In this document: positions 46,241-56,337 of the stretch, one piece after another | How the letters are laid out: each line of letters starts with the position of its first letter | Position numbering within the stretch: the first letter of the stretch is position 1 | Assembly (NCBI GenBank): GCA_947628695.1 | Contig: CANRAV010000005.1 | Span: 9,354-73,353, forward strand | Reading direction: 5' to 3' | DNA length: 64,000 nucleotides | Source of the DNA: an uncultured Clostridia bacterium | Lineage (GTDB): Bacteria; Bacillota; Clostridia; Oscillospirales; CAG-382 | Translations under genes and position numbers: made by a program | Notes under the pieces: model-generated | What the model was told of the DNA's origin: nothing | The model's database searches: none | The model's input: the letters and a program-made list of their open reading frames with translations, nothing else

Positions 46241-46260
46241 AGAATTTTTGTTAAAAATGC

Positions 46261-46398
46261 TTGACAAATTGCGCGGGCGGGTATATAATAACAAATAGAA
46301 AGGGCGCCGCCGATAAGCGGTTGGCCCCAAATTAGTTGGCTACCTACTTAAAAAAGTAGGCGATCGTCACTGTTGGAGTCAGTGGCGGTCATTTTTAT
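46261..46398 (+). ncRNA. Candidate antisense antitoxin sRNA, locus 1, extra copy (promoter included)
   Basis: TTGACA-17-TATAAT (46261-46289); no ORF; cctactt/aagtagg hairpin; terminal hairpin plus T-run. Confidence 0.65.
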
Positions 46399-46488
46399 TA
46401 GTGAAGAAGTAATAGTGAATAGTGGAGAAGTGCGGAAGAAAAAGCTCCCGCTTTTTCTACTTTATTTTGAAAAAGCAAATGAAAACGC

Positions 46489-46626
46489 TTGACAAATTGC
46501 GCGGGCGGGTATATAATAACAAATAGAAAGGGCGCCGCCGATAAGCGGTTGGCCCCCGTAACGCTTTTAACCTACTTAAAAAAGTAGGAGACCGTCACTG
46601 TTAGGACCAGTGGCGGTCATTTTTTG
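46489..46626 (+). ncRNA. Candidate antisense antitoxin sRNA, locus 1, cis copy (promoter included)
   Basis: Identical promoter (46489-46517); terminator overlaps the 3' end of the peptide ORF on the opposite strand. Confidence 0.7.
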
Positions 46627-46714
46627 CACACTTTACGATCGTAACGACCAATTGAATAAGGTCGCATATCGCGCTTATAAACACGAAGACCGCTTCATAT
46701 GTACTAAAAAACAT
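46601..46714 (-). CDS. Small hydrophobic peptide, putative type I (holin-like) toxin: MFFSTYEAVFVFISAICDLIQLVVTIVKCAKNDRHWS
   Basis: Strong SD (aaggagggagg), one TM helix, TYEA motif, basic tail; below the ORF-track size limit. Confidence 0.75.
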   Translation of the reverse strand: MFFSTYEAVFVFISAICDLIQLVVTIVKCAKNDRHWS

Positions 46715-46820
46715 AAGCCTCCCTCCTTCCCCTCGCTTAGAGAGCGAGAAAGGAGGAGCCAACCGCCTACCGTTATGGCAAACGCCCGGACGCCGCCGCT
46801 ATGGCAAACGCCCAAAGCTT

Positions 46821-46848
46821 ATTATACACTTTCAGCAAAATTTGTCAA
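46821..46848 (-). promoter_or_regulatory. SigA promoter for peptide mRNA, locus 1
   Basis: TTGACA-16-TATAAT on the minus strand. Confidence 0.75.
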
Positions 46849-47135
46849 GAGGAAACCGCTGCACAAACAAAACTTGTGCAGCGGCGCTGTTTTAGTGAAG
46901 AGTGAAGAGGTAAGAGTGAATAAGTGCGGAAGAAAAAGCTTCCGCTTTTTCATTATTATAATATTGCACAAATCCAACCGTAGTATCGCGTATTCATCGA
47001 ATATCTTTGATATTTAGTTTGCTTTAAGAATTTAGCCGCATATCAGCACCTGCATATTTAAATCAAATAACGTCCGCCAAAGGCGGACACCGCACTCCTT
47101 CGCTCTTCACTATTACTTCTTCACTTCGCCCCGCG

Positions 47136-54360: not shown

Positions 54361-54386
54361 GCGTTTTTCCTGTTTTGCCCGGCAGA

Positions 54387-54755
54387 CCGAGGGAAAAAGA
54401 GCGCAGACGGGGCGAACAAACAGGTAAGCTGTACTTAGTACTGCAAGGCTTTGTTCGTCACGAGCGAAAAAATTTAAATTAAATATGCGGTTAGCGGAGG
54501 CGAAAGCCGACGGTAACTTCCTTAGAGTCATTATTTACTTTTTCGCGTTCGGTGCCTTTTTCACCGGCCAGGCCGAGGGAAAAAGAGCGCAGACGGGGCG
54601 AACAAAGCCGCCAGCTGTACTTAGTACTGCAAGGCTTTGTTCGTCACGAGCGAAAAAATTTAAATCAAATATGCGGTTAACGGAGGCGTAAGCCGACGGT
54701 AACTTCCTTAGAGTCATTATTTACTTTTTCGCGTTCGGTGCCTTTTTCACCGGCC
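54387..54755 (+). repeat. Tandem direct duplication of a ~183-bp structured unit (period 186 bp)
   Basis: 54387-54569 and 54573-54755 are nearly identical. Confidence 0.92.
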
Positions 54756-55323: not shown

Positions 55324-55554
55324 ATGAAACAAAAAGAGAAAATTTTTGCACGCCACATACTCCCCGCGGGGCTTCTTTTCCCCGCAGCCTTCTGCCTTAC
55401 ATACGTTTGGGGGCTGCTTAGCGGCAGGATTGAGACAGCGTTCAGGTACGACGTGCTGTGCCTTGTCGCCGAGACGGCAAAGATATACCTCAGCTGCGCC
55501 GTCGTCGCCCTTGCGGGCTCCTGCGTGTACCAAAGACTTCTGCGGAAGGGGTAA
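55324..55554 (+). CDS. Small hypothetical membrane protein
   Basis: SD aaagga; two hydrophobic segments. Confidence 0.5.
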   Translation: MKQKEKIFARHILPAGLLFPAAFCLTYVWGLLSGRIETAFRYDVLCLVAETAKIYLSCAVVALAGSCVYQRLLRKG

Positions 55555-55562
55555 TCTCACTC

Positions 55563-55590
55563 TTGACAAATTCAGCAAAATATGTATAAT
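55563..55590 (+). promoter_or_regulatory. SigA promoter for peptide mRNA, locus 2
   Basis: TTGACA-16-TATAAT. Confidence 0.75.
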
Positions 55591-55700
55591 GTAGTCGAAG
55601 GGCATAGCCATATCGGTGTGCGGTCAGCCCCTCCTCTTTGCCGCATCTTTTGATGCGGCAAGTACTCGCTTTCTCAGCGAGGGAAAGGGGGGACGCTTTT

Positions 55701-55817
55701 ATGTTCGTTACTTATGAAGCTTTCTTCGGCTTCTTTGATGTAATCTTAGGCGTTTTGAGCCTTATTACGTCCATTGCAAGCCTTGTAATAGCGATTATTA
55801 ACTCGCATAAAAAATGA
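55701..55817 (+). CDS. Small hydrophobic peptide, putative type I (holin-like) toxin: MFVTYEAFFGFFDVILGVLSLITSIASLVIAIINSHKK
   Basis: G-rich SD, TYEA motif, one TM helix, KK tail; paralogue of 46601-46714. Confidence 0.78.
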   Translation: MFVTYEAFFGFFDVILGVLSLITSIASLVIAIINSHKK

Positions 55818-55947
55818 CCGCCACTGCTCCGAACAGTAGCGGTCTCCTACTTATTTTTTAGTAGGTAGATAACTTCGTGAGGGGCTGACCGCATATCGGC
55901 TTTGACCCTTCGACTTTTATTATACACTTCTCACGTCAATTTGTCAA
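55808..55947 (-). ncRNA. Candidate antisense antitoxin sRNA, locus 2, cis copy (promoter included)
   Basis: TTGACA-17-TATAAT on minus strand (55947-55919); same hairpin layout as locus 1; terminator overlaps the peptide stop. Confidence 0.7.
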
Positions 55948-55955
55948 GTGTTTTT

Positions 55956-56092
55956 AATAAAAATGACCGCCACTGCTCCAACAGTAGCGGTCTCCTACTT
56001 TTTAAAGTAGGTTAATCGCAACACGAGGGGCTGACCGCATATCGGCTTTACCCTTCGACTTTTATTATATACTTCGGGAAACTGTTTGTCAA
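55956..56092 (-). ncRNA. Candidate antisense antitoxin sRNA, locus 2, extra copy (promoter included)
   Basis: TTGACA-17-TATAAT on minus strand (56092-56064); body nearly identical to the cis copy. Confidence 0.65.
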
Positions 56093-56121
56093 GTGTTTAT
56101 TAATGCAAGCAGCCGGGAAGA

Positions 56122-56337
56122 TCAATCTCCCGCAAGCCTCTCCTCTTTTACTTCCTCAAGGGAGATATCGTTTTGAAGGACGCCGAAAAGCGACTTCGCC
56201 GCATCTACGCGCTCTTGAAACGGATTTGTAAGCTTGGAGATAACCTTTCCGTTGCGTGTAATATAAATATCCTCCGTTGCGGAGAGCAGCAGATACTTGC
56301 TTAAATTTGTTTTCAGCTCCGTCGCGGTGATTGACAT
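56122..56337 (-). CDS. Phd/YefM family type II antitoxin (no cognate toxin adjacent)
   Basis: ITATELKTNLSKYL...EDIYITRNGK. Confidence 0.88.
   Translation of the reverse strand: MSITATELKTNLSKYLLLSATEDIYITRNGKVISKLTNPFQERVDAAKSLFGVLQNDISLEEVKEERLAGD

Follow-up and report, generated by a model that had tools for sequence, protein, structure and literature searches.

A candidate type I toxin-antitoxin-like module with a predicted panhandle mRNA and a competing antisense RNA in gut Clostridia

A 64,000-nucleotide (nt) stretch of contig CANRAV010000005.1 (assembly GCA_947628695.1, positions 9,354 to 73,353 of the forward strand), hereafter the window, from an uncultured Clostridia bacterium (Oscillospirales; CAG-382), carries at positions 55563-56092 a locus, called locus 2, in which a gene for a small hydrophobic peptide faces a convergent antisense gene. 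Locus 2 is probably, though by no means certainly, one member of a large Clostridial family of type I toxin-antitoxin-like modules, composed of a small membrane peptide, an mRNA whose two ends pair as a panhandle, and an antisense RNA that competes for one arm of this helix. This reading is carried by the sequence elements of the module, their conservation, their covariation and an asymmetry between the two strands.

In the proposed mechanism, the toxin mRNA would start at about 55597, with its Shine-Dalgarno (SD) region sequestered by an upstream anti-SD. It would pass a hairpin that terminates the opposite strand only, and run across the antisense gene to about 55915-55925. The element at its 5' end (X) would then pair with the complement (anti-X') of the antisense RNA 5' half (X'), closing the mRNA as a panhandle similar to helix P1 of the bsrG mRNA (PMC3834814; this and the other papers given by PMC number are cited from parts of their text). 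Since the ~105-nt antisense RNA is perfectly matched and X is held by G.U wobbles and a bulge, the antisense RNA would be expected to outcompete X for the 3' arm. The mRNA 3' end would become a long perfect duplex and, by analogy, a likely RNase III substrate, while the released X and the adjoining anti-SD may re-tighten SD sequestration, an effect that is weakly predicted at locus 2. The transcript ends, toxicity, decay and translational control invoked here are what we infer from these elements.

Organization of locus 2

The features of the locus, in window positions, are as follows.

55563..55590, + strand: toxin mRNA promoter of the sigma-70 type, with -35 TTGACA, a 16-nt spacer and -10 TATAAT (12/12 consensus)
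55593..55633, + strand: element X, the mRNA 5' end, which copies the antisense RNA 5' half in the same sense; proposed 5' arm of the helix
55628..55636, + strand: anti-SD CCCCTCCTC, the first 6 nt of which overlap the 3' end of X
55640..55681, + strand: two leader hairpins (55640-55659 and 55665-55681) separating the anti-SD from the SD
55681..55693, + strand: G-rich SD region GGGAAAGGGGGGA, 8-14 nt 5' of the ATG, with the G-run SD at 55687-92
55701..55817, + strand: open reading frame (ORF) for a hydrophobic peptide of 38 amino acids (aa), putative type I toxin of a Hol_Tox-related lineage
55875..55915, + strand: anti-X', complement of the antisense RNA 5' half and proposed 3' arm of the helix; TTTTATTAT follows at 55916-55924
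55947-55919, - strand: promoter of antisense copy 1 (12/12 consensus)
55806..55912, - strand: antisense RNA copy 1 (~105 nt, with X' hairpin, hairpin 2 and terminator), candidate antitoxin
55847..55866, - strand: antisense hairpin 2, with an A-rich loop (a U-rich loop on the mRNA strand)
55844-55816, - strand: antisense terminator hairpin of 13 base pairs (bp), including one G.U, followed by ATTTTTT, the T-run extending to ~55806
55958..56092, - strand: second tandem antisense unit, with promoter 56092-56064 (12/12), RNA ~56057-55958 and terminator 55992-55965

A preliminary description of this DNA, made from its letters alone, had proposed a promoter, a leader and a 38-aa ORF on the toxin side, all of which are present. 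Likewise, its two stretches of complementarity, of 15 and 10 nt, are exact reverse complements (55879-55893 with 55619-55633, and 55906-55915 with 55593-55602). Inverted repeats I1-I5 were found in the region, and exact copies of the 14-mer GCGGTCAGCCCCTC lie at 55620 (+), 55879 (-) and 56025 (-). The promoter scan returned 8 promoter-like sites, compared with 3.1 +/- 1.7 in shuffles, and the toxin promoter is homologous to the antisense promoter module. A start near 55597, as suggested by the promoter, would give the toxin mRNA a leader of ~104 nt. When the mRNA was folded to 55860, that is, without its 3' extension, CCCCUCC paired with the G-rich SD across the two inner hairpins, which reproduces the anti-SD:SD pairing described earlier. 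An upstream ORF (55324-55554) ends 9 nt 5' of the toxin -35.

On the opposite strand, the convergent non-coding unit does possess its own consensus promoter (12/12) and its own 13-bp terminator. The latter overlaps the stop codon of the toxin ORF, and its + strand version has a C.A mismatch and lacks an adjoining U-run. The second antisense copy, 84% identical to the first, has no toxin ORF of its own; the promoter at 56092-56064 had not been described as part of such a copy. Copy 1 folds into three stem-loops (z = -5.0) and copy 2 folds alike. An Rfam search gave 0 matches in the window and only chance-level hits (E 0.23-10) in 55540-56110. The combination of a hydrophobic, SD-preceded ORF with an overlapping antisense gene under its own promoter and terminator bears out the type I toxin-antitoxin-like architecture proposed for the locus.

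A family of loci in the genome

The genome, a 1.97-Mb assembly of 38 contigs, was searched by nhmmer, which gave 52 hits, comprising 26 full antisense units and 26 partial ones. Promoter and 5' element modules that converge with a full antisense unit 220-370 nt away account for 22 of the 26 partial hits, and the remaining four are unpaired. One of the 22 facing modules is cut by a contig end and the other 21 form complete loci. In each of these, a strong SD precedes a hydrophobic ORF of 21-45 aa or what remains of one. The ORF subfamilies include MFVTYEAFF, MFFxTYESIF, MHVTYSDLF and MVTYEGLF. Four full antisense units lack a facing module, three of them being second tandem copies. All 26 antisense copies fit one covariance model (R1). 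In most family loci a conserved GC-rich hairpin with a T-run lies directly 5' of the toxin -35 (e.g. C19:5927, C25:18446), although not at locus 2, and an A/T-rich stretch lies beyond the antisense -35. Mobility of the loci in the manner of miniature inverted-repeat transposable elements was considered and rejected, as the flanks carry no target-site duplication and the conserved ends are asymmetric.

The window itself holds a second complete locus at ~46260-46860, where tandem + strand antisense units (46260-46396 and 46488-46625) are faced by a - strand toxin mRNA with its promoter near 46850-46820 and the ORF MFFSTYEAVFVFISAICDLIQLVVTIVKCAKNDRHWS.

Evidence for a 5'-3' mRNA helix

In every locus, X is a same-sense relative of X', from which it always differs by a 5-6-nt insertion and a few base changes; the preliminary description had noted this near-identity of the two RNA 5' ends at locus 2. 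Because the mRNA 5' end copies the antisense 5' half in every locus, a read-through mRNA would close a 5'-3' helix of 30-40 bp. At locus 2, the fold of 55597-55922 contains a long 5'-3' helix and reaches -145.8 kcal/mol, compared with -89.3 +/- 4.8 kcal/mol for shuffles (z = -11.9). The differences between X and X' comprise 31 wobble-compatible transitions, 2 incompatible ones and 42 transversions, many of the latter at ambiguous alignment ends.

Covariation was assessed on 35 aligned full-length mRNAs from 9 genomes, with 500 shuffles and slid-partner controls. Standard pairs filled 88.6% of the helix cells, against 81.5 +/- 0.6% after shuffling, and the covariation score was 0.329 against 0.180; neither value was reached by any of the 500 shuffles. 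Changes on both sides were found at 16 of 33 helix pairs, a number that 4 of the 500 shuffles attained. With slid partners, 32-49% of cells were paired, and the central 14-pair helix was 98.4% paired. The strand asymmetry points the same way, since the 28 core helix pairs hold 146 G.U and 18 A.C cells (16 columns with G.U, 7 with A.C) and the real duplex exceeds the mirror-strand duplex in 35 of 37 loci (-49.7 vs -41.6 kcal/mol). Covariation and strand asymmetry over 35-37 loci thus support the predicted helix, which the preliminary description had proposed from one locus and which also forms in the fold.

Some features of these data tell against so firm a helix. The loci are paralogs and their kin, and cell counts therefore overstate the number of independent events. 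The 30/30 result obtained in independent loci is partly circular, because these loci had been picked by a regular expression for the helix core. In the flanks of the core, the real duplex of these 30 loci was better, equal or worse in 19, 1 and 10 cases on the 5' side and in 14, 0 and 16 cases on the 3' side, with 65 G.U pairs vs 27.

The core of the helix, CGGT...CGG with its partner, is invariant in all 35 aligned loci of the 9 genomes (alignment A3, columns 55-58 and 62-64 with 358-360 and 365-368), and it recurs across Clostridial families. Near-invariance over such distant lineages exceeds what pairing alone requires.

Extent of the toxin mRNA

The hairpin shared by the two convergent genes appears to be built to terminate one of them. 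G.U pairs occur in all 26 antisense terminators, one or more in each and in three different positions overall; on the mRNA strand they turn into C.A or A.C mismatches. A perfectly complementary terminator arm was found in 0/26 units. In 37 of 38 loci the antisense strand forms the more stable version of the shared hairpin (-15.5 vs -12.4 kcal/mol), and the 9-nt tail of the hairpin holds 6.45 U on the antisense strand vs 3.82 on the mRNA strand. This asymmetry is consistent with a toxin mRNA that reads through to about 55915-55925. Three points speak against such read-through. The starts and ends of both transcripts derive solely from promoter and terminator consensus. The terminator scan called no canonical + strand terminator beyond 55915. 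Finally, the U-richness of the mRNA strand past the 3' arm follows from its lying opposite the antisense -10 and start region, and the U-tract after anti-X' was set aside as a terminator signal because it is not convincing (5.5 U in 10 nt, against 4.6 on the control side).

The toxin mRNA may instead end at the shared hairpin (~55845-55860). The likeness of X and X' would then be a relic of an inverted duplication of promoter and leader, perhaps retained as a 5' stabilising hairpin in both RNAs, and the antisense RNA would, like RatA with txpA, act only through the ~50 nt in which the two RNAs overlap at their 3' ends. Homology between the promoters and 5' modules is clear, X and X' are each able to form a local hairpin, and Gram-positive type I pairs typically overlap partly, at their 3' ends (PMC8594479); the weak U-tract and the lack of a called + strand terminator fit as well. 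However, such an early end leaves unaccounted for the covariation of X and X', with nearly all of their differences wobble-compatible on the mRNA strand, and also the constant mRNA-strand mismatch and the missing adjoining U-run at the shared hairpin. Gene conversion between the inverted copies would not fill this gap, as it would homogenise them and erase the conserved bulge and the directional G/A differences. We regard termination at the shared hairpin as unlikely, though worth keeping in mind.

Antisense competition and control of the SD

Over the final ~105 nt of the proposed read-through mRNA, the antisense RNA is a perfect complement. Its duplex with the 3' arm is stronger than the mRNA helix in all 36 loci compared (-90.7 vs -50.7 kcal/mol). 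The best duplex between its 5' 70 nt and the cognate leader was no better than shuffled in 20 of 20 loci (z -0.78 to +1.55), and since it has no complementarity to the leader beyond that of shuffles, its target would be the 3' region of the mRNA. The same result disfavours a mode of action like that of SprA1AS, in which the antisense RNA would be anchored by its 3' overlap and its 5' domain, with a CCCCUC anti-SD-like run, would pair in trans with the toxin SD. The CCCCUC/CUCC runs in X' could indeed pair with the G-rich SD; with all 20 loci at the level of shuffles, this is the least likely of the explanations considered, and extremely improbable.

Opening of the SD by the helix, followed by its closure through the antisense RNA, was predicted to have the expected direction and a small size, and this step is weak. 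At locus 2, the predicted unpaired probability of the SD was 0.11 in the short form, 0.20 in the long form and 0.12 in the long form with the antisense-covered part blocked. The corresponding means over 35 loci were 0.09, 0.17 and 0.08, and blocking lowered the value by more than 0.15 in 9 of these loci, with one locus showing the reverse and 25 no clear change. Both the small shift at locus 2 and the minority of responsive loci count against SD control as part of the mechanism. The helix and the anti-SD overlap by 0 to 6 nt among subfamilies. The preliminary description had proposed an SD freed by the 3' element and repression by an antisense RNA that occupies this element; the competition for the 3' element holds in prediction, and the freeing of the SD is weakly predicted. 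The comparison of folds that it suggested gave SD pairing without the 3' element and the long helix with it, as envisaged, and only a weak opening of the SD.

A mostly sequestered SD in all three modelled states would also suit a storage form of the hok/aapA kind, since most loci would then not depend on the helix for SD opening or closure. The 5'-3' helix would lock an inert, stable mRNA with protected ends that the antisense RNA cannot invade, and slow 3' trimming would remove anti-X', giving the form that is translated or captured by the antisense RNA. That the helix joins the very 5' nucleotides to the 3' end fits this scheme, and inhibition by 5'-3' fold-back has a precedent in hok (PMC3834814, PMC8594479). 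Nevertheless, the antisense RNA here targets the 3' arm itself, unlike Sok and IsoA, which act on the 5' leader. The conserved G.U pairs, the conserved 5-6-nt bulge and the adjoining single-stranded linker and complementary hairpin loops favour antisense invasion. Further, trimming would leave X free to re-sequester the SD of locus 2, and so would not activate translation. A storage form is accordingly doubtful, to much the same degree as an early mRNA end, and competition of the antisense RNA for the 3' arm remains the favoured reading.

The peptide and its relatives

The product of the ORF at 55701-55817 is MFVTYEAFFGFFDVILGVLSLITSIASLVIAIINSHKK; it begins with MFVTYEAFF and ends with NSHKK, and has one hydrophobic stretch (19-residue Kyte-Doolittle means 1.0-2.7) and a KK C-terminus. 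Counted by codon position (first/second/third), paralogous ORFs of the MFVTY group show 12/6/39 differences and those of the MFF group 152/114/234; the MHVTY-group count (47/37/49) was not used because of an indel in one member. The excess at third positions suggests that the family ORFs are probably translated.

Database searches placed the peptide at the profile level only. The locus-2 peptide had no Pfam hit at E <= 1 or E <= 5, Hol_Tox (PF16935) included, and nothing above threshold in NCBIfam, where only sub-threshold matches such as PepG1, ChlG and other noise appeared; taken by themselves, these results do not favour a toxin. A tblastn search against phages gave only hits at E = 7. Among the 16 paralogous peptides, 3 match Hol_Tox, and one (C23:471-551) is the sole peptide of this genome to exceed its cut-off (25.9 vs 23.3 bits). 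The profile built from the paralogs found 122 cluster representatives at E <= 1e-3, of which 55 match Hol_Tox. A link to the Pfam holin-like family, which the preliminary description had suggested checking, therefore exists through paralogs and profile relatives and not for the locus-2 peptide itself. The "holin-like toxin" annotations have been tied to the TxpA family by Fozo et al. 2010 (PMC2887945), and a divergent branch of Hol_Tox/TxpA-like peptides is the best explanation for the locus-2 peptide.

Alternatively, these loci may not be toxin-antitoxin pairs, the peptides being harmless small membrane proteins or untranslated and the convergent RNAs serving another regulatory purpose. Toxicity of the peptide is presumed, Hol_Tox is by name only a 'putative' toxin family, and 22 toxin-type modules would be an unusually high load for a 2-Mb genome. 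Apparent decay of family loci, with a premature stop at C8:75106 and no start codon at C25:18446, likewise sits uneasily with a toxin-antitoxin role. On the other hand, the loci carry the full hallmarks of type I systems, namely a short hydrophobic ORF, a K/R-rich C-terminus, a strong sequestered SD and a convergent antisense gene with consensus promoter and terminator. A terminator hairpin shields most of the toxin promoters from upstream transcription, and the codon-position pattern fits a translated ORF. Such a harmless role is, in our estimate, very unlikely.

Distribution in Clostridia

The antisense covariance model R1 matched 14 of the 61 genomes searched, including the genome of origin. 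Matches were found in 7 of 12 genomes of the same genus, in 0 of 24 genomes from other genera of the family, and in 6 of 24 single genomes representing the other families of the order. These six hits are weak, and three of them (L066, L069 and L070) resembled plain terminators by eye and were excluded from later counts. Of the remaining loci, L078 was also excluded because its 5' end is cut, and L086, whose promoter had been misassigned, does not enter the SD-accessibility, mRNA-alignment and duplex-energy/codon counts. The architecture is kept where the peptide is unrelated, for example in MDYLIALIIILVLL... and MEYIIIILVLILLL....

A scan of species-representative genomes for the conserved mRNA core gave at least 119 stretches; 80 loci, with 84 matches, are listed. 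Among the matches listed, 30 of 84 are followed within 380 nt by a complementary element, and a small SD-preceded ORF is present in 29 of the 30 as well. By record title, the 30 belong to Lachnospiraceae, Oscillospiraceae, Ruminococcus, Phascolarctobacterium, Peptococcaceae, Aminipila and others. The other listed matches are expected to be chance hits of a 14-base pattern. A search of sequencing runs for the locus sequence returned 9 DNA runs (gut metagenomes) and no RNA run.

These loci thus appear to form a large and so far undescribed family of small putative toxin genes in gut Clostridia. No paper on the family was found in the literature, although Tables S5/S6 of Fozo 2010 or the T1TAdb tables might list such Clostridial TxpA-like loci. 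Similarly, no paper was found on type I systems in Ruminococcaceae, Oscillospiraceae or Lachnospiraceae. In the part of a review of Clostridial type I systems cited here, the only hits outside C. difficile are TxpA-like and Fst-like ones in C. bolteae and C. asparagiforme (PMC6563280). Type I toxin-antitoxin systems of Clostridia beyond C. difficile are almost unstudied.

Relation to known type I systems

The closest counterpart of locus 2 is bsrG/SR4 of the B. subtilis prophage SPbeta, in the TxpA/BsrG group. In the bsrG mRNA, nt 1-35 pair with nt 232-262 in the long, bulged helix P1. When SR4 pairs with the bsrG 3' region, nt 1-33 become single-stranded and the SD helix grows from 4 to 8 bp; RNase III-dependent decay is promoted as well (PMC3834814). 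Locus 2 shares with this system a hydrophobic peptide of 38 aa, a convergent antisense RNA over the 3' part of the mRNA, an SD within a short helix and a helix 3' arm within the antitoxin-covered region, the last of these in silico and dependent on the proposed read-through. The competition logic has therefore already been published for bsrG/SR4 and the design is not new in principle; the preliminary description had left open whether the arrangement was known, and bsrG/SR4 supplies the answer (PMC3834814).

Several differences separate the two systems in the cited text. The bsrG mRNA has the terminator SL4 one nt after P1, whereas no separate mRNA terminator was seen at locus 2. SR4 has a non-complementary 5' stem-loop, whereas at locus 2 it is the very 5' end of the antisense RNA that the 3' arm complements. 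Unlike in bsrG/SR4, the toxin promoter and 5' end recur, as an inverted duplicate, in the antisense promoter and 5' half. Lastly, the bsrG SD helix tightens from 4 to 8 bp on SR4 binding, whereas the predicted SD change at locus 2 is small (0.20 to 0.12). When the peptide profile A1 and the antisense model R1 were run against the SPBc2 record AF020713, no match was obtained at E <= 10, in searches that had no positive control. The locus is best filed as a widespread Clostridial form of bsrG/SR4-type control, with Hol_Tox-related and other small peptides.

Other systems share parts of the design. Like txpA/RatA and Hol_Tox, locus 2 combines a small single-transmembrane peptide with a charged C-terminus and a convergent antisense RNA that overlaps at the 3' end; the txpA SD helix is reported to stay unchanged on RatA binding (PMC3834814). 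As in hok/sok and aapA1/isoA1, the ends of the full-length toxin mRNA would be paired and the SD sequestered (PMC3834814, PMC8594479). In those systems, however, antisense binding takes place in the 5' region and trimming removes the 3' element, whereas at locus 2 the antisense gene lies at the 3' end and its RNA is exactly complementary to the 3' element. In T1TAdb, according to the cited part of its description, antisense RNAs fully overlapped by the mRNA occur only in Gram-negative families (PMC8594479). With fst/RNAII (par of pAD1), locus 2 has in common convergent genes, a shared 3' hairpin and a second functional region at both RNA 5' ends (PMC3834814). The 5' repeats of par are direct in the DNA and the RNA 5' ends are complementary, whereas those of locus 2 are inverted, so that its two RNA 5' ends are alike and of the same sense. 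Trans pairing with the leader is, unlike in fst/RNAII, not supported here.

The antitoxin-contested 5'-3' helix has so far rested on one probed Bacillus system, and the diverged copies of this family add comparative support for it. If read-through is confirmed, bsrG/SR4-type dual control would be a general design, with dozens of natural compensatory variants for testing it.

A broader and more speculative proposal concerns the near-invariant core. X/anti-X' might be a portable RNA chassis of gut Clostridia for unrelated toxin ORFs, in which (i) the antitoxin arose from an inverted duplicate of the toxin promoter and leader and is thereby a decoy of the mRNA 5' end, (ii) the panhandle and the U-rich complement of the antisense promoter serve as mRNA terminator, and (iii) the core ACGGTAGGCGGTT, followed by the anti-SD, mimics the helix-45/anti-SD 3' end of 16S ribosomal RNA (rRNA) and is read by a factor that recognises this end. 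Taken jointly, these three parts are less probable than either a storage form or an early mRNA end, and quite unlikely. The 16S 3' ends of two relatives (L087:2964-3016 and L090) do resemble the mRNA element (window 55600-55641), as in TAGCCATATCGG--TGTGCGG vs TAGCCGTATCGGAAGGTGCGG. For 12 of 21 mRNA elements, the best local alignment in a 9-kb rRNA locus fell on helix 45 (p = 0.002-0.09, mononucleotide shuffles). The antisense element showed no significant likeness to helix 45 (p = 0.04-0.71), and neither nhmmer nor BLAST against two whole genomes recovered the 16S likeness of X. Mimicry of 16S rRNA by X is thus a speculation.

Neighbouring sequences

Beside locus 2, a 71-aa ORF on the - strand (56122-56337) gave a sub-threshold match to the Phd/YefM type II antitoxins (PF02604, E = 8.1e-6, 26 bits vs a cut-off of 29.8). 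Downstream of this ORF the second antisense copy follows, and no partner toxin ORF was seen there. On the other side of locus 2, a tandem repeat at 54379-54755 (186-bp unit x 2.0, 94% matches) is located between ORFs whose translations read as M23-peptidase-like and NrdR-like.

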